IMG/VR virus record: IMGVR_UViG_3300009095_001812
Coordinates: 120,990 to 184,989 of that record
Length of the DNA: 64,000 nucleotides
Direction: 5' to 3' (one strand)
Source: a virus
Taxonomy: Duplodnaviria; Heunggongvirae; Uroviricota; Caudoviricetes
Shown: positions 4,659-62,682 of the stretch, one piece after another
Layout of the letters: every line of letters begins with the position of its first letter
Position numbering within the stretch: the first letter of the stretch is position 1
The notes under the pieces: generated by a model
What the model was told of the DNA's origin: nothing
Database searches by the model: none
Seen by the model: the letters and a program-made list of their open reading frames with translations, nothing else
Program-made: the position numbers and the translations under genes

Positions 4659-4826
4659 GTGGATAAGCAAAAGTGCCCTAAATGTGATAAATCCAACAAG
4701 TGCCAAATAGCCGAAGGTAAAGGTGTTTGCTGGTGCTTCTTCGAGGATGTTCCAAGAGATCTTCTCGAAAAAGATCCTGAAGATAGCTGTTATTGTTTGA
4801 CATGTATAAAACAACACAAGGAGTAA
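4659..4826 (+). CDS. Small Cys-rich (zinc-ribbon-like) protein, about 55 aa
   Basis: GTG-initiated frame encoding CPKCDKSNKC...CWCF...CYCLTC. Ends at TAA 4824-4826, immediately before the RF2-like gene. Confidence 0.35.
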   Translation: MDKQKCPKCDKSNKCQIAEGKGVCWCFFEDVPRDLLEKDPEDSCYCLTCIKQHKE

Positions 4827-4828
4827 AT

Positions 4829-5495
4829 ATGGAATCTGTTGTTATCGAAATACGTGCCGCTGAAGGTGGTGCGGATTCAAAGTTGTTATGTGAAGATATG
4901 CTCGTAGCGTACACGAAAGCGGGAGACCGGGAGCGTCTTTGACTCGGAACTCCTAGAGTCTCAGCCTGGCTTGATAGTTATCTTATTCAAAGGAAGAGGA
5001 GCCAAAGCACTTTTCAAAAACGAAGCTGGAGGTCACCGCTGGCAGCGAATACCTCCAACTGAAAAACGTGGTCGTGTCCAAACATCTACCGTTACTGTTG
5101 CTGTTTTAGATCCAGAACCATCTACAAAATTTGTTCTCGATGAGAAGGATGTTGAAATAAAGACAAGTCGAGGATCGGGTCCTGGTGGTCAACATAGAAA
5201 CAAGACAGATTCATGTGTAACGGTTACACACAAACCAACCAAGACATCCGTTCGCATTGACATGCGAAGTCAACATCAGAGCCGTGAAATGGCTCTGAAA
5301 GTTCTTGCGGCCAAATTGGCAGATGAGTCAACCAATTTGGATCGAAAGGACAGAGAGCGACTTCGCAAGTCTCAGGTGGGATCTGGCATGCGCGGAAATA
5401 AAATCCGCACCTACAGATTCCAAGATGATCAAGTAACTGATCATCGAACGGGAAAGTGTTGGAAACTTAAAAAATGGATACGAGGCGAGTGGTAA
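4829..5495 (+). CDS. prfB: Class I peptide chain release factor homolog (RF2-like, N-terminally truncated) with a programmed +1 frameshift
   Basis: Frame 0 (4829..4939) encodes MESVVIEIRAAEGGADSKLLCEDMLVAYTKAGDRERL, matching the EIRAGAGGDEA region of release factors. It stops at TGA 4940-4942 inside the classic RF2 shift site CTT TGA C, with an SD-like GGGAG 3 nt upstream. The +1 frame (4941..5495) continues with GGHRWQRIPPTEKRGRVQTS, SGPGGQHRNKTDS and the conserved C-terminal RSQVGSGMRGNKIRTY..VTDHR. An AAGGAG RBS sits 7 nt before the ATG. Joined product is about 221 aa. Confidence 0.8.
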
Positions 5496-5767
5496 TGAAA
5501 TACGAAGAATATCAGGTTTGGTTTCACGCTTACAATACAGCAATCTCCTCATTATTGAGAGCTGGAGATGTGGGACCAATCATCAAAAGAAGCGATGAGG
5601 TTCCGAAACTCACCCAAAATGTCATTGGTTGTGCAGATCAAATCGCGGCTCACGCACTAGAGAAGTTCAAGCAAGTAGATAACCCAAAGGTAGAAAACAT
5701 GCCTTCGGAATTTAAAAACATAGTTGAACAGGTAGCAAAAGAGGCGTTGAAACGTGGCAAGCCCTGA
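5474..5767 (+). CDS. Hypothetical protein
   Basis: 97-aa ORF overlapping the end of prfB. Confidence 0.5.
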   Translation: MDTRRVVMKYEEYQVWFHAYNTAISSLLRAGDVGPIIKRSDEVPKLTQNVIGCADQIAAHALEKFKQVDNPKVENMPSEFKNIVEQVAKEALKRGKP

Positions 5768-6350: not shown

Positions 6351-7042
6351 TGAGTAAAGAAATCTTGCTTATTGAGCATGTTGCATCTTGGCTCGCAAAA
6401 TATATGGAAGAGTCTGGAAGAAAGGTTTTTATTGTAAATTACAACGGAGCACGCTCTGACGCTCTTGTACTGAAAGTTTGCTCGGAAGCCACATCAATCA
6501 AAAAAGGTTTGAGTACAATTTGTTTGTATCAAGATTTTTTTCCCAAAGAATTTATGGGAAGGTCTTACAAAATAGATATTCCTGTTATTCCAAACATCAC
6601 TGGTACAGAATATATGATTGCTAACAAGTGGGCAGATGATAAAGACGGTGTTGTTATTGGATCTGTTGATAAAACGTTTGGTAAATACAAAAGAACTTAC
6701 ACAAAAATTGAATACTCTTTGTGTGATATATTTCCATTATATGATTTGTACTACTCAGAGATTATACATCTAACGGATTTTATATGGCCTGATGCTAAAT
6801 GGAGAGATGCCGAGGTCGATGACTACAAAATGCTTGAGTTCTGTGTAAGGGCTGAGAATTCGTTCGGAATCATAACCTCTACGAATCCTCCTCATAAACA
6901 TGAGATGTGGCATACCTTTACGGGAACTCAGAAAAAATTCGTTGCTGAATGTCAACAGCGCGAAAAGAAGACGAGACACAAAGAGTTAAGAAAGCCATAT
7001 CCCAAAATACCAGATAATATAGGATTATATAATGGCCGATAG
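6338..7042 (+). CDS. Hypothetical protein (N-terminus faintly PP-loop ATPase-like)
   Basis: 234 aa. GRKVFIVNYNGARSDALVLKV resembles a degenerate SGGxDS PP-loop. Confidence 0.5.
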   Translation: MEYLMSKEILLIEHVASWLAKYMEESGRKVFIVNYNGARSDALVLKVCSEATSIKKGLSTICLYQDFFPKEFMGRSYKIDIPVIPNITGTEYMIANKWADDKDGVVIGSVDKTFGKYKRTYTKIEYSLCDIFPLYDLYYSEIIHLTDFIWPDAKWRDAEVDDYKMLEFCVRAENSFGIITSTNPPHKHEMWHTFTGTQKKFVAECQQREKKTRHKELRKPYPKIPDNIGLYNGR

Positions 7043-7346
7043 TAAAATAATACTTGAGAGTATGTTTGGGTTTGAGTCTTCTGATAATACCATCAAGATT
7101 ATGGGTGAGGTTTATAAAGAACTTGCTGAGGCAGAGGCTAAGTTTGAACCATTCAATTCATCTCATGAGGGATACGCTATTCTTCTTGAAGAGGTGGATG
7201 AGCTTTGGGATGTTGTGAAAATCAATCCAAAAAAACTTGAAGGTGGAGCTAAAGCAAGAAATCAAATGATGCGCGCTGAAGCTATTCAGGTTGCTGCAAT
7301 GGCAATCAGATTCGTCAAGTGTATTTGCGATAAGGAAACCATCTAG
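7032..7346 (+). CDS. MazG-like all-alpha NTP pyrophosphohydrolase candidate
   Basis: 104 aa. Acidic helix LLEEVDELWDVV plus a second helix AEAIQVAAMAIRF. Small size fits phage MazG-like proteins. Confidence 0.4.
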   Translation: MADSKIILESMFGFESSDNTIKIMGEVYKELAEAEAKFEPFNSSHEGYAILLEEVDELWDVVKINPKKLEGGAKARNQMMRAEAIQVAAMAIRFVKCICDKETI

Positions 7347-7349
7347 TTT

Positions 7350-7892
7350 ATGAAAAGATCTGCTGCAATCGCATCAGCCCGTATAGGAACTAAAGAATCT
7401 AGGTTCAATACCATTGTTGAGATACTTGATCTCAAACATAAAGGTGATTGGCGCATTTGGGAAGATGCAGAATCAAACATCTTGAAGATATCCAAAAACG
7501 GAGCTGTACAGGTTTATCCATCAAAAATCTCTATTACAACAAGAGATATCTTCAAGAAGGCAGAGCCAAAGCTCATTGCCAAGCACTCATATTGGGTGCT
7601 GTGTTTGTTTGGGACAACACAGAAAATACTTGTGTTTCTTGGTAATGATGGAATTCTTAGATGTTGCCTGTTTGATAACAATCAGTGGATAGAAAATTTA
7701 AGTTCTGTTCTTTTGGGGTTCAAAACATTAAAAGTTATAGCTTCTGGATATATAGACTCAGAACCAAGAAGGATGCCACAAATGAATATTACGTATCCTA
7801 AGAGTTTCGAGATCGAGGAGGCTTGGGCTTCTGGATATCCATCTAATGATTCACAGTTACAGGAGAAAATACAGTGTCTGGGGATAAGTTAA
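7350..7892 (+). CDS. Hypothetical protein
   Basis: 180-aa ORF. Confidence 0.5.
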   Translation: MKRSAAIASARIGTKESRFNTIVEILDLKHKGDWRIWEDAESNILKISKNGAVQVYPSKISITTRDIFKKAEPKLIAKHSYWVLCLFGTTQKILVFLGNDGILRCCLFDNNQWIENLSSVLLGFKTLKVIASGYIDSEPRRMPQMNITYPKSFEIEEAWASGYPSNDSQLQEKIQCLGIS

Positions 7893-16307: not shown

Positions 16308-16323
16308 AATAATATTCTTTCTG

Positions 16324-16411
16324 CGGAAGAGGAGGGGATCGAACCCCCAAGTCTGTTAAGATCGTCACCTTTCCAAGGTGATGCCGTCGCCTGCCCTCGG
16401 CTAGCCCTTCC
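16324..16411 (-). tRNA. tRNA-Ser (anticodon GGA), type II with a long variable arm
   Basis: Acceptor GGAAGGG / CTCTTCC with a G-U pair. Anticodon loop TTGGAAA, 17-nt variable arm, T-loop TTCGATC, discriminator G. Confidence 0.8.
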
Positions 16412-31139: not shown

Positions 31140-32858
31140 TTACTTAGAAAGTATTCCAGAAACAGTGTCAACTACTCCATCTACCTTTGACTTAATAGCC
31201 GGGTCGAGATTCTCTGCAAATGAATTGATCAATTCAGCCGTCTTTTGACCAGACATCAAAGAATTAAGCATTGCATTTGCAGATTCCGGAGTGCCATAAA
31301 GAGTCATAGTAATCTTCTGACCAATCTCTGCCATTGCCTTCGCAGACTCGATACGAATAGTCCTGTCCGCCTCAACCTTCAGCTTGGCAATCTCGAACTC
31401 CTGAGCAACCTTACCAGATTTCTCACGAGCTTCGAGTTCAGGCTTCACAACATTTTCAATACGATCCTGATCGATCTTGACCCTTTCACGCTCAACCTCC
31501 ACAGGAACAAGAGCGAGAGCGCGGTCACCTTCAGCTTTGGCTTTTAGGGCAACAGCTTCGGCAGTTGCTTTCTTGGTTACCGCCTCTGCATCAGCGTCGG
31601 CAGCGAGCTTGCGGGCTTCTGCATCCTTTTGAACGCTATATGCCTTGGCATCTGCTTTACGCTGCTCTGAAACAAACGCTTGCTCTGCTTGTGCTTGCGC
31701 TGCAATCACAGCACGTTTCTTCTCGCGCTCTGCTTCTGCCTCAACCTCAACGGTCTTGACGGACTGCATCTCACGTTCACGAAGAGCTTGTGCTGTAGCG
31801 AGTTCTGCTTCTTTTGCGGCTTTCAGCTTAGCAGCCTCTGCAACAGCTTGAGTCCTTGCTTCGTTTGCAACTTCTGTTGCCTGTTTCTTCTCGATAGCTG
31901 CAACTTCAAGATTTCGTTGCTTCTCGACTTCAGCAAGTTCCACAGCACGAGCAGCTGCAATTGCTTTCTCTTTTGCAATTTGATCTTGCTCAGCTCTAAC
32001 CTTTGCAATCTCTGCCGCTTGTGTTGCTTCGGCTGCTTGCTGATCTTGCTCATGAGCGAGAACAGCTTTTCTGGTTTCAACATCTTGTTGTTTTCGAGCC
32101 TGTTCACCAGCACGTTCCAGCTTGTTTCTTTCAGTCTTGTTACGCTCAGTGATCTCTGCAATGGTTCTCTTACCCTGTGCGTCGAAGATGTTATCATCAC
32201 TTAATGAGGAAACAGAAGTCTGATCCAATTTAGAGATGGTTACAGATTCAAGAGACAGACCGTTTTCGGCAAGGTCATTATTCACAGCTTTGGTAACTTC
32301 TTCTACGAAGTTTTCACGATCTGAATGAAGTTCTTGTAGAGATTTAGTTGCAGCAACTGAACGAAGAGCAGAGATAAGTTTGTCTTCAACTGCGGCTTTT
32401 ACCAAGTTGACATTCATCATCTTATCACCAAGAGAACGTGCTGCTTGAAGTATACTTTCCTGAGATGGTGATACTTTAACAAAGAACTCTGCACCAATAT
32501 CAGCACGCAGATTATCTTTGGTAATAAGAGCGTCTTTGTGTTCACGCAGAACTTCGAGTTTCAAAGTCTCTAATGAGATTTTAATGAACTCATGTAGTAC
32601 AGGAATTACAAGTGCGCCACCATCTTGGATTATTCTCACTCCACCCATACCAGTACGAACGAAAGCTTCATTTGCTTTTGCCCTCTGATAGAGTTTTGTG
32701 ATGACTGCGATGATTCCGATGACGAGCATCAAGAACACACCAGCGCCCATCAAAATGGCTTGTGACAAAAAGCTTACTTGAACTCCCATTGCACTCATAG
32801 CAATCGGGGTCACTAGTAAACCCAGTGCCAATATGAAAAGTAAAACAAGACCGATCAT
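31140..32858 (-). CDS. SPFH/band-7 (flotillin/stomatin-like) membrane protein
   Basis: 572 aa. N-terminal transmembrane helices, an SPFH core, then a long Ala/Glu/Lys-rich coiled-coil tail typical of flotillin-like proteins. Confidence 0.75.
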   Translation of the reverse strand: MIGLVLLFILALGLLVTPIAMSAMGVQVSFLSQAILMGAGVFLMLVIGIIAVITKLYQRAKANEAFVRTGMGGVRIIQDGGALVIPVLHEFIKISLETLKLEVLREHKDALITKDNLRADIGAEFFVKVSPSQESILQAARSLGDKMMNVNLVKAAVEDKLISALRSVAATKSLQELHSDRENFVEEVTKAVNNDLAENGLSLESVTISKLDQTSVSSLSDDNIFDAQGKRTIAEITERNKTERNKLERAGEQARKQQDVETRKAVLAHEQDQQAAEATQAAEIAKVRAEQDQIAKEKAIAAARAVELAEVEKQRNLEVAAIEKKQATEVANEARTQAVAEAAKLKAAKEAELATAQALREREMQSVKTVEVEAEAEREKKRAVIAAQAQAEQAFVSEQRKADAKAYSVQKDAEARKLAADADAEAVTKKATAEAVALKAKAEGDRALALVPVEVERERVKIDQDRIENVVKPELEAREKSGKVAQEFEIAKLKVEADRTIRIESAKAMAEIGQKITMTLYGTPESANAMLNSLMSGQKTAELINSFAENLDPAIKSKVDGVVDTVSGILSK

Positions 32859-49170: not shown

Positions 49171-50226
49171 TTAAAAGTCCCATTGCATAAAGTTCTTTCT
49201 TGATTCTTTCTTGATGGTTATTTTATAGAAACCATCTTTGAACTCAAATTGACCATTCTTAGCAGAAATTAGATTTTCTTCAACTAATTTTACCCCCTCA
49301 TAGGGGTTGTCATCTTCGCCATTTTCTTTCGTATAGTTTTCAACACAGTTCTCTGTGAAATACCATCTATCATGAGTAAAAGGTCTCAAAGTATGTTTTC
49401 CCGTATACTTTCTATCGTTTCTTGAATCCACAACTTCAAAATTGTAGGTATCATACGAAGAAACGTGACGGATATTCAGCATTTCAAAAACTTCTTGTGG
49501 GGTTTCCTTATGAAGGTTACACTCAAACACAATAGCTTGTAACATATCAAAATTGAAATTAGGTACCAATCTTGATAGGTTGATTACTGAATCGGTATGT
49601 TGTTTATTTTCCATATTTCTATGGCAGTACTCTATAATGAAAGACTCTTCAAGAGATGAGAATCTGATATGGTAGTGAATTCTACCTGGACGATTCAAGA
49701 AGAAATCGTTTACATGAAAAATATCATTGACCGTTAGTACCAACAGTTTGTTTGACGAATAAACACCTTCAAACAAGGTTAGTAGCTTTGATTGTGCCTC
49801 ATCTTTTTTGAAAACCTTTTCGAACTCATCAAAAACAATTACACATTTCTGATTGATATCTGAAATAAACTTACAGAAGTCTTCATCAAAATCATTGGTG
49901 ATAATTATTGTTGGAATTCCCATTTCTTGACACTTCTTGCAAGCAAGCCGAAGCATCATTGTCTTTCCAGAACCCTTTTCTCCAGAAAGTAAAACACCAA
50001 CATTTCCTTCTTTGTGGGAGTAGGTTTTGATAATCTTGTTTACGTTTTTTACAACGTCTCCATAGATATGATTCGGAATTGTGAACTCATCAACAAGCTC
50101 AAGATAAAACCCTGTAAATTTGTTGAATCTCAACGTATAAACATTAGGCGGCAAATCATCTAAGATATGTGTAGCGTTATCGGGAGCTACGTGAATTCTA
50201 TTACCGTCTTTAAAATATTTGGCCAT
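49171..50226 (-). CDS. P-loop (AAA-like) ATPase
   Basis: 351 aa. Walker A SGEKGSGKT, Walker B VIVFDEFE. Confidence 0.65.
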   Translation of the reverse strand: MAKYFKDGNRIHVAPDNATHILDDLPPNVYTLRFNKFTGFYLELVDEFTIPNHIYGDVVKNVNKIIKTYSHKEGNVGVLLSGEKGSGKTMMLRLACKKCQEMGIPTIIITNDFDEDFCKFISDINQKCVIVFDEFEKVFKKDEAQSKLLTLFEGVYSSNKLLVLTVNDIFHVNDFFLNRPGRIHYHIRFSSLEESFIIEYCHRNMENKQHTDSVINLSRLVPNFNFDMLQAIVFECNLHKETPQEVFEMLNIRHVSSYDTYNFEVVDSRNDRKYTGKHTLRPFTHDRWYFTENCVENYTKENGEDDNPYEGVKLVEENLISAKNGQFEFKDGFYKITIKKESRKNFMQWDF

Positions 50227-56131: not shown

Positions 56132-56732
56132 TCACTCATCGAGTGTCTCTGTGTATGCATCACTTAAGTCCGAACCGATGTTTTTTAATCGATCCCAAGT
56201 GAATGGCCTTGGGTTTTCACGCAATAATGATGCTCCAACCGAATCCAGCGCGATGTCGACTGGGAGGAGCGCTGTTTTGACGCTTGCACTGCCTAGTTTT
56301 TTGATTGCTCTGAAAATACTCATATTCTAAAATATCCTTTGCCTTCTCTTTCGATTCTATCTTTTTCTGTGAGTCTAATTAGTTGTTGATCAACTTCTGT
56401 CATAACTGAACTAAGACGTGCAGAAAAACCAATTGAAGATCTTGGAGCATCATGATACTGGTCTGATACGATTGAAATCAGATCAATTTGTTGACGCGAG
56501 CAGAACTGTTCAAACTTTATATCTTTCATTAGGTACTCGATAAACTGAAAGTATCAGGAATGAAATGAAGTGTCCAGCTTGATTCTAAAACCCAAAACAT
56601 TACAGATTTGTTATCCGAATCCATAAAATCAGGAAGTTGTTTTAGATGGTTTTGACACAATGAAAATATGAGCATTGGACTAATACTATCACACGGCGGT
56701 ACGTATGTCAAGCCATTTTTTATAGTGTTCAT
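56132..56732 (-). CDS. Three consecutive small hypothetical ORFs (56132..56323, 56320..56529, 56529..56732)
   Basis: 63, 69 and 67 aa, same strand, with start/stop overlaps. They sit upstream of the rfb operon. Confidence 0.35.
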
Positions 56733-57507
56733 TAGGTCCTAAAATTTCATCAGTTTTAGATGTGTCCAGAACGCTATAACTAGGGCGCAAGGCCTGCCTT
56801 GGAAATTCATTTGTAGAACAAGGCTTGATATTACAGGAAGATCCTACCTTGTGAGAAATGTCTTTTGCAAACTCAAACCACGAACAACTACCTCCATCTG
56901 TAATATGAAAAGTTCCAGTTTGTTTCAGATCGATTAGCTTCAAAGTTCGCTGGGCCAAACCAATTACATGAGTAGGGCGGCCGAACTGATCATTAACTAC
57001 ACTAATTTCATCTTGGGTATTCAAAAGGCGTAACATTGTTTGTAAAAAATTATTACCCCAAGGAGCGTAAACCCAACTTGTCCGAATCAAAAGATAATTA
57101 GCACCAGATGATTGAAGTAATTCCTCACCACGAAGTTTGGAACGCCCATAAGCATTAATGGGACTTCTTTTATCGTCAGTTTTATAAGGTGTCTCTGAAG
57201 ATCCGTCGAAAACATAATCTGTACTAAAATGTACAAACTTTGCACCAACAATAGCGCACTGTTCTGCAAGACTTCCAACTGCATCGCCATTAACGCGAGA
57301 GGCTATATCCTCTTCCTTTTCGGCATCATCAACTTTTGTATATCCTGCGCAGTTGATTACACAATCACCAACATCAATTGGTAATTTTAAATTTTCAAAC
57401 TTACACAAATCAGCTTGGGCTCGATCTAAAAATATAGATTCTTTTGGTAAGAGCTTTGTAAAAGCTTTTCCTAATTGACCACTGGATCCTAGAATAATAA
57501 ATTTCAA
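56689..57507 (-). CDS. rfbD: dTDP-4-dehydrorhamnose reductase
   Basis: 272 aa. N-terminal GxxGxxG Rossmann motif (ILGSSGQLG). Position and size fit RmlD as the last step of the operon. Confidence 0.75.
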   Translation of the reverse strand: MKFIILGSSGQLGKAFTKLLPKESIFLDRAQADLCKFENLKLPIDVGDCVINCAGYTKVDDAEKEEDIASRVNGDAVGSLAEQCAIVGAKFVHFSTDYVFDGSSETPYKTDDKRSPINAYGRSKLRGEELLQSSGANYLLIRTSWVYAPWGNNFLQTMLRLLNTQDEISVVNDQFGRPTHVIGLAQRTLKLIDLKQTGTFHITDGGSCSWFEFAKDISHKVGSSCNIKPCSTNEFPRQALRPSYSVLDTSKTDEILGPNEHYKKWLDIRTAV

Positions 57508-58052
57508 AATATTTCCTTATAAACAGGAAGATTTTTGATATCTTTCAAAAAAGGAGCTTCACTATCTTTTGAAGAAAGTAATGGATTTTCTATAGGCCAT
57601 GGAATATTTAAATCAGGGTCTCTAAATGATATACTCATTTCACAAGATTTTTCATATACATTAGTACATTTATATAAAACATGAGCACTATCACTAAGAA
57701 CACAAAACCCATGAGCAAATCCGGGCGGTACGTAAAATTGATATTTGTTTTGAGAGTTTAGTTCCGTAGCGCAATATCTACCAAATGTTGGAGATCCTAT
57801 TCGAACATCAACTGCAACATCCCAAATACATCCCGTAATAGCCATGACCAATTTTCCCTGATCATTTGGATGTTGTAAATGTAAACCACGTAAAGTTCCA
57901 TTGTATGAATATGAAAGATTATCTTGAACAAATTTTATTTCTTGAGGAAACGATCTTATAGAAAATGTTTCCGTAAAAAATCCACGATAATCAAAAATAA
58001 CACGAGGTTTAATAAGTAAAACCTCAGGTATTTCTTGTTGAACAATTTCCAT
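57504..58052 (-). CDS. rfbC: dTDP-4-dehydrorhamnose 3,5-epimerase
   Basis: 182 aa cupin. RGLHLQ and the His/Lys/Tyr catalytic pattern match RmlC. Confidence 0.75.
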   Translation of the reverse strand: MEIVQQEIPEVLLIKPRVIFDYRGFFTETFSIRSFPQEIKFVQDNLSYSYNGTLRGLHLQHPNDQGKLVMAITGCIWDVAVDVRIGSPTFGRYCATELNSQNKYQFYVPPGFAHGFCVLSDSAHVLYKCTNVYEKSCEMSISFRDPDLNIPWPIENPLLSSKDSEAPFLKDIKNLPVYKEIF

Positions 58053-58925
58053 TTATATTTCCTTTTTTAACAAAGAATTTAAATATTTTGCATAATCTGT
58101 TTTTCCTAAAGAACTTATACTCTTTCGCAGATCGGGTTCGGTTATCCATTTCGAATTGAAAGCAATTTCTTCTGGGCAAGCAATTTGCAAACCCTGCTTT
58201 TCCTGTACCGTTTGTACAAACTGAGATGCTTGTAACATTGCTTCTGGAGAACCTGTATCAAGCCAAGCAATACCCCTACCAAGTTTTACACATAACAAAG
58301 AACCATTGTTGAGATACATTCTGTTCAAATCTGTTATTTCCAATTCACCTCGGGAAGATGGCTGTAGTGTTTTAGCAAATTCAGAAACCCGATGGTCATA
58401 AAAATAAAGACCAGTAACCGCATAATTACTTTTGGGTTGCTTTGGTTTTTCTTCAAGTGATATGACTTGACCCAACTGATCAAATTCAGCAACTCCATAT
58501 ATTTCAGGAGTTGCTGTGTGATATCCAAATATTTTAGCGCCGTGAGTTAGCTTGGCCGCATTCTGTAACTCACCTTGTAAACCATGACCAAAGAAAATGT
58601 TATCACCAAGAACAAGTGAGCACGGTTCGTTATTGATAAATTTTTCACCAATGATAAATGCTTGAGCTATACCATTTGGAGATTGCTGAACTTCCTGTTG
58701 AATATTCAAACCCCACTGAGAACCATCGCCAAGAGTTTTAGAAAAAGACTCTTTATCTTCGGGTGTTGTTATAACAAGTACATCTCTAATTCCGGCAAGC
58801 ATTAGTACGCTAAGCGGATAATAAATCATAGGTTTATCATAAACAGGAATTAGTTGTTTACTAACACCTCTAGTAATTGGAAATAATCTAGATCCTGTAC
58901 CACCAGCTAATATAATTCCCTTCAT
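58053..58925 (-). CDS. rfbA: Glucose-1-phosphate thymidylyltransferase
   Basis: 290 aa. N-terminal [16 protein letters not shown] is the classic G-x-G-T-R-L nucleotidyltransferase signature. RmlA-like throughout. Confidence 0.85.
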
Positions 58926-59977
58926 TCAATACCACGCTTAGTATAGTTTTCTTCAATCCAAAATTGGTATTTGCCAGATGTAACTGAATTTACCCAATCT
59001 TGATTATCTATATACCAATCTACTGTTTTTTGTAGACCAGATTCTATTGTTTCTTGCGGGGACCAACCACACTCTTTTCTTATCTTGGTTGAGTCAATCG
59101 CATATCTTAGATCATGCCCTGGACGATCTTTTACATAAGTAATTAAAGATAAAATATCATCTTCAGACTCTCCTAGTTTTTTAGAAAGCAAAGTGCATAA
59201 AGCTTTAATAAGATTTATATTTGAACATTCATTATTACCACCTACATTGTAAGTTTCTCCAACTCTACCATTTTCATGTACAGCCCAGATAGCAGAACAA
59301 TGATCTTCAACATATAACCAATCACGTACGTTTTCACCTTTACCATAAACAGGTATTGGTTTTCTTTGTAGTACATTACTAATTACCAAAGGTATTAGTT
59401 TTTCTGGAAACTGATATGGTCCATAGTTATTTGAGCAATTAGTTATATTAACAGGAAGTCCGTATGTTTTATGATACGCTCGAACTAAATGATCACTAGA
59501 CGCTTTAGAAGCTGAATAGGGACTAGAAGGATCATATGGTGTTTTTTCTGTAAACAAACCATTCTGATCTAAAGACCCATATACTTCATCAGTACTTACG
59601 TGATGAAAGATAATTGATTTTTGTTTTCTGGATTCTTCGAGTAAATTGAATGTTCCAATTATATTGGCTTGTATGAAAGCTCCAGGTCCAAGAATACTAC
59701 GATCAACATGACTTTCTGCGGCAAAATGAAAAACAACGTCAGGTTGTACTCTTGCAAATAATGATTGAACTTCAATAGGATTTGAGATATCAACACGCGA
59801 GAATTCGTAATTTCCAAGCTTAGAAATATTTTCTAGATTTTGTAAATTAGCTGCGTATGTCAAATTATCTGCATTTACAAAATGCACTTCTTTCATTATT
59901 GGTACTGATTTTAGTAAAAAATTAGAACCAATAAATCCAGCCCCACCTGTCACTAAAATTTTCTTATCAAAATCCAT
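58922..59977 (-). CDS. rfbB: dTDP-glucose 4,6-dehydratase
   Basis: Start reassigned to [18 protein letters not shown] (ATG 59975-59977). The tracked ORF's extra N-terminus is the translated tRNA-Val. YxxxK and TGGAGFIGS are SDR motifs of RmlB. Confidence 0.85.
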
Positions 59978-60051
59978 GGTGCAAGATAGAGGATTCGAAC
60001 CTCTGACCACTTCCTAGTCAAAGAAGCACTCTACCGCTGAGTTAATCTTGC
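59977..60051 (-). tRNA. tRNA-Val (anticodon GAC), 3' CCA encoded
   Basis: Perfect acceptor GCAAGAT / ATCTTGC, D-arm ACTC-AGCGGTA-GAGT, anticodon arm CTTCT-TTGACTA-GGAAG, T-arm AGAGG-TTCGAAT-CCTCT, discriminator A then CCA. The CCA overlaps the rfbB start codon. Confidence 0.8.
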
Positions 60052-62603: not shown

Positions 62604-62614
62604 AAATTCTTAGC

Positions 62615-62682
62615 AGTTCTGGAGGGATTCGAACCCTACACGTTCGAAGCGTGCTGCACTAATCCGCCGTGCTACAGAACCA
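62615..62682 (-). tRNA. Noncanonical 68-nt tRNA-like gene (anticodon UCG, Arg-like) lacking a variable region; possible pseudogene
   Basis: Acceptor GGTTCTG / CAGAACT (G1-U72). D-arm GCAC-GGCGGATTA-GTGC, anticodon arm GCACG-CTTCGAA-CGTGT, then directly AGGG-TTCGAAT-CCCT. No nucleotides are left for positions 44-48. Confidence 0.4.

Follow-up and report, generated by a model that had tools for sequence, protein, structure and literature searches.

A 64,000-nt stretch of DNA from a Caudoviricetes virus (IMG/VR record IMGVR_UViG_3300009095_001812, positions 120,990-184,989), called here the window, carries a gene for a short class-I peptide chain release factor (RF) that is divided between two reading frames. 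The first open reading frame (ORF), ORF0, encodes the first strand and helix α5 of RF domain 2, aligned to residues 107-140 of Thermus thermophilus (Tth) RF1. The second, ORF1, lies in the +1 frame, and joining the two across a +1 shift gives a 221-aa protein (Table 1). At the junction are the components of a prfB-type cassette: CUU-UGA-C, a Shine-Dalgarno (SD)-like element 3 nt upstream, and RF homology that continues in the +1 frame. The anti-SD pairing predicted for the GGGAG element is -7.1 kcal/mol. The original prediction had noted this cassette as GGGAG, 3 nt, then CUU UGA C, and it is present base for base. Also borne out were the lack of domain 1 in a product of about 221 aa, the protein starting at RF1 residue ~104-107, and the retention of the GGQ motif and the C-terminal domain, with domains 3 and 4 encoded by ORF1. 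The shift site had been placed inside domain 2 and away from the N-terminus; the first part is correct and the second is not, since the site, at codon 37/38 of 221, comes roughly as soon after the start as that of prfB.

The cassette motif by itself proves little. The heptamer CTTTGAC occurs 11 times in the window against 11.5 expected, that is at chance frequency, and GGAG-N3-CTTTGAC occurs once against 0.08 expected. The argument rests on the homology context of the cassette and on comparative data.

Table 1. Coordinates of the release factor gene in the window, and equivalents of RF1 decoding elements in its product
Feature	Position (nt)	Strand	Remarks
Initiation Shine-Dalgarno AAGGAG	4818..4823	+	sequence; serves ATG 4829; abuts TAA 4824-4826 of upstream Cys_rich_CWC ORF
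ORF0, 37 sense codons (MESVVIEIRAAEGGADSKLLCEDMLVAYTKAGDRERL; MESVV...GDRERL)	4829..4939	+	stop is TGA 4940-4942
GG tip, EGGAD, reader of stop-codon U1	4862-4876, in ORF0	+	conserved across the short-RF family
Two GGGAG repeats	4921..4933	+	proximal copy 4929-4933 is the putative internal Shine-Dalgarno-like stimulator, 3 nt upstream of CTT
Cassette order	GGGAG 4929-4933, spacer CGT 4934-4936, CTT 4937-4939, TGA 4940-4942, C 4943	+	sequence
Shift heptamer CTT TGA C	4937..4943	+	predicted: peptidyl-tRNA-Leu moves from CUU to UUU, then GAC in +1 frame
ORF1, +1 frame, 184 codons (DSELLES...RGEW)	GAC 4941 .. TAA 5493-5495	+	rest of domain 2, domain 3 (GGQ), domain 4
Predicted frame-junction peptide AGDRERL-DSELLESQPGLIVILFK (...DRERL-DSELL...)		+	joined translation
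Stop-codon recognition loop WQRIPPTEKRGRVQT	5040..5084	+	Gln at Tth Q181 position, PPT, Val-Gln-Thr at Tth I192-H193-T194; alignment to 4v63-type RF1
Tripeptide PPT, residues 75-77	5052-5060	+	equivalent to Tth P184-V185-T186
GGQ peptidyl-tRNA hydrolysis motif, residues 119-121	5184..5192	+	invariant in the short-RF family
Switch-loop region SQVGSGMRGNKIRTY	5370..5414	+	aligned to Tth RF1 AQIGTGERSEKIRTY; the RF1 switch loop couples codon recognition to domain 3 docking
RF1 element G116			G13 in window protein; alignment to Tth RF1
RF1 element E119			D16 in window protein; alignment to Tth RF1
RF1 element Q181			Q72 in window protein; alignment to Tth RF1
RF1 element P184-V185-T186			P75-P76-T77 in window protein; alignment to Tth RF1
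RF1 element R191-I192-H193-T194			R82-V83-Q84-T85 in window protein; alignment to Tth RF1

The class of the protein was assigned using NCBIfam and Pfam profile hidden Markov models (HMMs), a sequence search of the Protein Data Bank (PDB), an AlphaFold2 model and fold comparison by Foldseek. Pfam matched the C-terminal half of PCRF (model positions 101-194 of 194) and RF-1. RF1 was the top-scoring NCBIfam family with 212 bits, ahead of RF2 (133), PrfH (84) and ArfB (34), all of these scores being under the curated cutoffs; the two RF1 equivalog models, NF001859 and TIGR00019, gave 212 vs 400 and 202 vs 423 bits. The RF1 HMM produced a single alignment of protein residues 3-220 with model positions 105-330, spanning the junction. 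Membership failed for RF2 (TIGR00020; cutoff 370 bits), the tripeptide being PPT and not SP[FY], and for PrfH (TIGR03072; cutoff 167 bits). It also failed for ArfB (NF006718; cutoff 100 bits), where only residues 99-138 aligned and a PCRF domain is present. In the PDB search RF1 scored 146 bits in an alignment that again spans the junction, RF2 at most 97 and PrfH 50. The AlphaFold2 model, built from a 40-sequence alignment, has a mean predicted local distance difference test score of 89, with 95-97 over residues 31-50 around the junction. Its TM-score is 0.80-0.81 to ribosome-bound RF1 (38% identity), 0.73-0.78 to RF2 and 0.62 to PrfH. The gene had been described as RF2-like, which does not agree with the lead of RF1 in all three comparisons. 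An ArfB-type rescue factor, for which an HMM comparison with RF1, RF2 and ArfB had been suggested as a check, is not supported either, with 34 bits on the GGQ domain alone and the PCRF domain in place.

Domain 1 is absent. Residue 4 aligns with Tth RF1 residue 107, so that about 105 residues are missing, and no upstream ORF extension that could supply them was found in the window gene or in the other short forms. The C-terminus is about 20 residues shorter than in canonical RF1. The frame junction L37|D38 corresponds to Tth RF1 F140|E141, in the turn between helix α5 and the next strand of domain 2. The RF1-type decoding set is present, including the RF1-like PxT-type tripeptide reported originally, Gln72 and Thr85 as third-base readers, and GGQ; the deviations are Asp for Glu119 and Gln for His193. 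By homology and modelled fold, the protein is an RF1-type factor without domain 1, neither RF2-like nor an ArfB or a PrfH. Since every RF1 element for reading UAA and UAG and for peptidyl-tRNA hydrolysis is kept, the product most likely terminates at these two codons. According to PMC1586002, which cites Mora 2003 and Vestergaard 2005, codon-specific release in vitro does not need domain 1, and RF1 in truncated form is functional in vivo. The tripeptide alone does not reveal specificity (PMC5776981).

Relatives were collected by an IMG/VR scan and a metagenome scan with the family alignment, and their shift status was classified by tblastn frames. The shift set consists of 37 non-identical loci from phage and metagenome contigs, the window included, with 43-61% protein identity to the window. 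In all 37 the frame changes from n to n+1 at one common aligned codon, and in all 37 the last zero-frame sense codon is CTT followed by a stop. The stop is TGA in 23 loci, TAG in 12 and TAA in 2, and C follows it directly in 32. About 60% of the set has a GGAG, GGAGG or GGGAG core whose first base is 7-8 nt ahead of CTT (3-nt spacer), and the mean anti-SD pairing is -6.5 kcal/mol vs -2.7 for other segments within the same genes. The residues encoded over this stretch differ (RERL, RRGL, RECL, LERL, RRSL, QEGL, RNGL and others) while the SD-like GGAG is kept, which argues for selection on the RNA and not on the protein. Judged from these comparisons, the frameshift appears to be programmed.

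Automatic annotation truncates the short-RF genes, and most database entries hold ORF1 only. A protein-cluster check covered the 120 best hits (90%-identity clusters) in a database of 5.8 billion proteins. ORF1 alone was present in 111 of the 120, called from an internal TTG, ATG or GTG start or extended upstream in the wrong frame; where such clusters are named, the name is "peptide chain release factor 1". The extended entries read ...GGVFD... in the +1 frame, the translation of GGAGGGGTCTTTGAC. Some 76 of about 83 informative clusters read xF[D/E] in that frame, which is NTT TGA N, while three read FS (TAG) and one FK (TAA). The entry for the window gene, P0001, is a 174-aa ORF1 called from TTG 4971. 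Because the invariant GG tip lies in ORF0, ORF1 alone would be no functional decoder, and ORF0 is predicted to be needed for decoding.

The original prediction took the gene to be phage-encoded, and its nearest homologues are indeed in huge-phage genomes and IMG/VR contigs. In a tblastn search of a phage collection the closest were LR745208, LR756511, LR745206, LR756504, LR756502 and LR756501, with 39-47% identity and one RF-like locus each. At the DNA level this collection gave no useful relative, only a single 87-nt match; a database entry for an ORF1 99% identical to that of the window comes from a 446-kb metagenomic contig. Window ORFs have strong matches to PHROGs (phrog_10440, 7e-114; phrog_2376, 3e-93; endolysin-like families). 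A scan of one genome per species (185,579 species) found, among the 80 best loci, 78 ordinary RF1 genes and two shifted short forms. These two lie on metagenome-assembled contigs, one of Sandaracinaceae (L126, 19.8 kb, reading GGAGGGAG-CTT-TGA-C) and one proteobacterial (L127, 30.3 kb, reading CGGAGCCGT-CTT-TGA-C), and may be mis-binned phage contigs or prophages. The short-RF family thus seems essentially restricted to phage contigs.

A family tree was made by neighbour-joining, without support values, and rooted on RF2. In it, canonical RF1 is sister to a single clade that unites the short forms, the basal ones being unshifted (L002, L058, L070, L106). The shifted forms group together as one clade, and L047 is the only unshifted form nested among them. 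Within the shift clade TGA, TAG and TAA sites are interspersed, the window (TGA) grouping with L042 (TAG) and L007 (TGA). Residue 38, for which bases of the stop itself code, is the sole alignment position to covary with TGA vs TAG at the shift site. The tripeptide of the short forms is PPT in 46, PPN in 8 and SPT in 5 (L007, L009, L042, L071, L087). In two members of the shift clade, L001 (LR745208) and L020, the PxT loop is lost or shortened through a deletion of four residues (RVQRT----SNGRIHSST and WQHAPT----GKVHTST); GGQ and the cassette are kept in both.

Two sister clades without the shift have in-frame TGA codons early in the RF gene. In one tight clade (16 loci by alignment) there is a single TGA at codon ~36, at the Trp of the RF1 "GW" motif and in the same aligned column as the CTT Leu of the shift clade. 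In the 14 of these loci used for codon counts (L056, L059-L063, L065-L067, L072, L074, L076, L078, L083) the base after the GW TGA is A or C, and the other two Trp codons of the genes are TGG. The second clade, from huge phages (L003-L006, L008, L079, L081), has 1-2 in-frame TGA in codons 39-54. The genetic code of the sister-clade loci was judged by TGA and TGG counts per ORF. Most ORFs neighbouring their RF genes have no in-frame TGA (L003 3999-5825, 18 TGG and 0 TGA; L004 19-1974, 6 TGG and 0 TGA), and pooled Fisher tests gave p = 0.004 and 0.001, uncorrected for relatedness. A comparison of coding density under different codes was uninformative on loci of 5-6 kb. For LR745206, 95% of the genome was covered (L215-L226); its long ORFs have 1083 TGG vs 110 TGA, and 128 of 175 ORFs are without TGA. 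It has a tRNA-Trp(CCA), no tRNA(UCA) was detected in that 95%, and it behaves as a standard-code genome. Three different devices would therefore tie the short-RF gene to UGA not being terminated, and this is the strongest hint that the comparisons give about function.

The window itself uses all three stops as terminators: its 109 ORFs end in TAA (51), TGA (42) and TAG (16). Reading TGA as sense (code 4) was rejected, because RF homology is lacking where the zero frame is continued and because 42 of the 109 ORFs terminate at TGA. Tests of ORF coverage and split ORFs gave no signal of TAG or TGA recoding within the window. The single pair of ORFs separated by a TAG in the same frame (7032-7346 and 7350-7892) has no Pfam match in its joined form and was taken as two genes. 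Among the 21 tRNA genes of the window is a well-formed amber suppressor with anticodon CUA (42361-42434, minus strand), which has an encoded CCA end and an Rfam score of 66 bits, the third best in the window. LR745208, which has a CUU-UGA shift and the deleted PxT loop, is standard-coded and uses all three stops as terminators. At its positions 7629-7705 and 142332-142406 (L205, L207) are a tRNA with anticodon UUA, an ochre suppressor, and a tRNA-like gene with the 4-base anticodon ttta. In neither of the two genomes examined does the suppressor tRNA read the stop found at the shift site; with n = 2 genomes, the suppressor anticodon never matching that stop is a lead and not a result. Other odd anticodon calls occur in L087 6199-6274 (tgaa), L009 1414-1486 (a 2-base "tc") and LR745206 (gtag).

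The cassette is of the same kind as that of prfB, the gene for RF2. Salmonella has AGGGGG-TAT-CTT-TGA-C and the window GGGAG-CGT-CTT-TGA-C; both sites are early in a class-I RF gene (codon 25/26 in prfB, 37/38 here), and in both the zero-frame product is a short peptide. The window gene differs from prfB in that it is RF1-type and has the site in domain 2, at the RF1 "GW" position, whereas the prfB site is in domain 1. Its relatives use TAG in 12 of 37 cases and TAA in 2 of 37, and its product is not expected to read the codon that is sensed. The cassette had been thought to be retained from prfB. Since the site, at RF1 F140/E141, is not positionally homologous to that of prfB and is in a different paralogue, the cassette arose independently.

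Until now programmed +1 frameshifting at CUU-UGA has been seen as a mark of prfB and of no other gene. When more than 12,000 bacterial genomes were surveyed, prfA showed no programmed shift and none of 8,164 prfB motifs had TAG (PMC12421855). Every CUU-stop +1 case in RECODE is prfB (PMC10885494). According to Atkins et al. an early in-frame UGA that continues in frame is unknown for RF2 genes, as is an RF1/UAG counterpart (PMC5009743). The short-RF family would supply several such missing cases, all of them in phages: a cassette placed non-homologously in an RF1-type gene, cassettes that naturally have UAG or UAA, and sister clades with an early in-frame UGA. In the searchable literature, which leaves subscription-only papers outside, we came across no prior account of a phage RF1 that is frameshifted or truncated, or of a shift in RF1-type or phage RF genes. 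Within that scope, a prfB-type device in another, RF1-type gene family, with UAG and UAA versions, is new. The family may serve as a natural experiment on the evolution of termination-sensing circuits and as a minimal, naturally domain-1-less RF for structural and mechanistic study. It may also offer a handle on how huge phages manage stop codons alongside suppressor tRNAs, and ready parts for synthetic genetic-code engineering.

In prfB, peptidyl-tRNA-Leu sits on CUU with a slow UGA-C in the A site, and SD/anti-SD pairing 3 nt upstream favours re-pairing on UUU. On the window mRNA, initiation at ATG 4829 would be followed by translation of 37 codons, until peptidyl-tRNA-Leu/CUU occupies the P site and the A site presents UGA-C, a context in which termination is weak. 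GGGAG, 3 nt upstream, would pair with the anti-SD of 16S rRNA; the strong initiation SD AAGGAG suggests that the host ribosome reads SD sequences. If the UGA stays unread for a while, the tRNA would re-pair on UUU, GAC would be decoded and translation would run to TAA 5495. If a release factor reads the UGA first, only a 37-residue peptide would be made. The output of factor would then vary inversely with the UGA-termination capacity of the infected cell. Cross-regulation by RF2 is favoured because the sensed UGA is read by the host RF2 and not by an RF1-type factor. Low free RF2 would give more shifting and more RF1-type factor, which would take on the UAA load (51 of the 109 window stops) and free RF2 for UGA, so that shifting falls; such load balancing would be an indirect negative feedback. 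In relatives with UAG shift sites the feedback would be direct. Without domain 1 the factor would act without RF3 and L11-stalk contacts. Taken as a whole, we consider it probable that the gene encodes a 221-aa RF1-type factor without domain 1 that is made only via a programmed +1 shift, cross-regulation by RF2 being its favoured mode of control.

A number of observations weigh against this account. RF1-type factors are not expected to read UGA, so the logic of prfB is not directly applicable and an indirect loop has to be inferred. Under RF2 shortage an RF1-type factor could not serve the 42 of 109 ORFs of the window that end in TGA. About one quarter of the shift loci have no recognisable SD-like element. 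The free switching of the site among TGA, TAG and TAA fits an all-stop reader or a fixed-ratio site at least as well. The decoding pocket is non-canonical: Asp occupies the Glu119 position in 62 of 64 short forms and Glu in 78 of 78 canonical RF1, a central Pro such as that of the window PPT occurs in 0 of the 78, and His193 is Gln in the window gene. Finally, the CUA suppressor tRNA would compete with an RF1-type factor at UAG.

Autoregulation, as originally claimed, is not established, as the UGA at the site is not expected to be read by an RF1-type factor and TGA, TAG and TAA interchange in relatives with no decoding residue that covaries. The short factor may nevertheless itself read UGA (UAG and UAA in relatives), as an omnipotent or RF2-like factor, and terminate at its own shift site as in prfB. 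One logic would then cover the interspersed shift sites and the in-frame UGA gates of the sister clades, and would explain the lability of the stop more economically. The family-specific pocket would fit, with its Asp for Glu119 and a [P/S]-P-T tripeptide that has a central Pro as in the SPF of RF2, and so would the existence of the five SPT variants. From the work of Ito et al. in 2000, Ser at tripeptide position 1 reportedly admits G at codon position 2, and Thr at position 3 admits A or G. The suppressor tRNAs of both inspected phage genomes read stops other than UGA (CUA in the window, UUA in LR745208), and the tripeptide alone cannot give specificity (PMC5776981). Against these points, the equivalents of Gln181, Thr186 and Thr194 are RF1-type in the window gene and most relatives, no decoding-site residue covaries with TGA vs TAG at the shift site, and overall similarity is clearly to RF1. 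Moreover, a factor that accepts G in the second codon position and A or G in the third should act on the Trp codon UGG too. Direct autoregulation therefore looks somewhat unlikely to us, although the sequence alone cannot decide between it and cross-regulation. A wider form of the idea, which we hold to be unlikely, is that the remodelled pocket (Asp for Glu119, [P/S]-P-T), in what would be a separate phage lineage of minimal class-I RFs, reads beyond the RF1 pair, possibly all three stops, each member being a self-limiting circuit gated by a stop in the first ~55 codons. If so, the gates would be a +1 shift at CUU-UGA, UAG or UAA in one clade and an in-frame UGA read as Trp in two others, and together with suppressor tRNAs they would let the phage itself tune which stops terminate in infection.

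The lability of the stop, the lack of an SD-like element in about a quarter of the loci and the loss of the shift in the nested lineage L047 would also suit a constitutive attenuator. Here a roughly fixed shift efficiency would only lower the yield of a potentially toxic factor, RF overexpression being toxic in bacteria (PMC12421855), or would yield a useful 37-aa peptide, with no sensing. Yet the traits behind the responsiveness of prfB are kept: 32 of 37 loci have the weak context UGA-C or UAG-C, and some 60% have an SD-like element spaced by exactly 3 nt. A change of promoter or ribosome binding site would be a simpler route to attenuation, and, as any stop in the A site competes with release factors, some sensitivity is unavoidable; the attenuator is improbable. 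Very improbable is a PrfH- or ArfB-type rescue factor that serves stalled or damaged ribosomes and does not act at stop codons. Like PrfH, the protein has no domain 1, and the RF gene is next to transfer-messenger RNA (tmRNA) genes in L066, L067 and L078, near tRNA genes elsewhere in that in-frame-TGA clade, and within tRNA arrays in shift-clade relatives. Both rescue families are far under cutoff (PrfH 84 vs 167 bits, ArfB 34 vs 100), and the fold is closer to RF1 than to PrfH (TM-score 0.80-0.81 vs 0.62). In addition the PCRF domain, PxT-type loop, Gln181 and switch loop are retained, and there was no RtcB family match among the RF-gene neighbours and ten longest ORFs scanned. It is hardly credible that the arrangement is a pseudogene, a sequencing or assembly indel, or two genes (a small ORF and an RF N-terminally truncated from TTG 4971), even though gene callers annotate only ORF1 (P0001, 174 aa). 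Independent assemblies give 37 divergent loci that share the CTT-stop +1 shift and its codon position, homology reaches the junction in both frames, and ORF1 alone is without the α5 GG tip. Transcriptional slippage was rejected, as the T run of CTTT (3 nt) is too short.

The favoured reading, an RF1-type factor under RF2 cross-regulation, can be set beside other systems. With canonical RF1 (prfA) the window protein shares its best HMM, sequence and fold match, the PCRF and RF-1 domains, GG tip, Gln181, PxT-type tripeptide, Thr194, switch loop and GGQ. It differs in having no domain 1, scores of about half the family cutoffs and an altered pocket, in needing a frameshift and in being essentially phage-restricted. 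Phage RFs are known from stop-recoded phages (RF1 in Jade, RF2 in Lak and Agate) and from the huge phages of Al-Shayeb 2020, and like the window gene these are class-I RFs among translation genes and tRNAs, with a suppressor tRNA; the nearest relatives of the window RF are in the huge-phage genomes LR745206, LR745208 and LR756501-LR756511. These RFs were published as RF1 or RF2, in reports silent on truncation and frameshift, and the RF2 of Lak is full length with SPY and no shift. Unlike those phages, the window shows no recoding. RF1 usually accompanies TGA recoding, and RF2 accompanies TAG recoding, whereas the window combines an RF1-type gene with an amber suppressor tRNA. PrfH (RF-H, coupled to RtcB) resembles the window protein in the lack of domain 1, in keeping a domain-2-like module and GGQ and in its size of ~200-230 aa. 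It has a divergent decoding region and rescues damaged ribosomes, whereas the window family keeps the RF1 decoding residues, shows weak similarity to it (84 bits, under cutoff; TM 0.62) and has no RtcB partner among the window ORFs scanned. In Mimivirus and Megavirus a class-I RF gene of the eRF1 type is interrupted by stops, needs a frameshift and readthrough, and has been read as bacterial-style autoregulation (PMC3521657). That family is unrelated, the virus and host are eukaryotic and the recoding sites are others, so the parallel is in logic only.

The genes next to the RF gene encode an RNase T-like exonuclease (RNase_T), a HAD hydrolase, a Cys_rich_CWC protein and a macro-domain protein; no RtcB family match was found among these neighbours or the ten longest window ORFs scanned. 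Packing is tight: the upstream Cys_rich_CWC ORF (4659-4826, Pfam) ends 2 nt before ATG 4829, and the ATG of a downstream 90-aa ORF (5494-5767) overlaps the RF stop (TAATG). A promoter and terminator scan around the RF gene gave nothing over shuffle expectation. The gene neighbourhood is not conserved, none of six flanking window proteins recurring in related loci. What recurs near short-RF loci is only tRNA arrays, plus tmRNA in three loci, suggesting that the short-RF gene is in a "translation island". The arrays are around or beside the gene in L011, L015, L016, L018, L021, L043-L046, L049, L050 and L087. The tmRNA genes are in the in-frame-TGA clade, within ~1.5 kb of the RF gene (L066 1258-1625, L067 4598-4977, L078 4185-4645).

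Elsewhere in the window the two tRNA lists differ at two places: an Rfam tRNA of 40 bits at 62614-62681 (minus strand) is not in the ARAGORN list, and an ARAGORN tRNA-Ser at 16323-16411 is not in the Rfam list. The window also has an SPFH/Band 7 protein (31140-32858) and AAA ATPases (40385-41956, 49171-50226). A dTDP-rhamnose-type cluster is found on the minus strand at 56689-60010, consisting of an RmlD-like gene (56689-57507), an RmlA-like nucleotidyltransferase (58053-58925) and an RmlB-like dehydratase (58922-60010).

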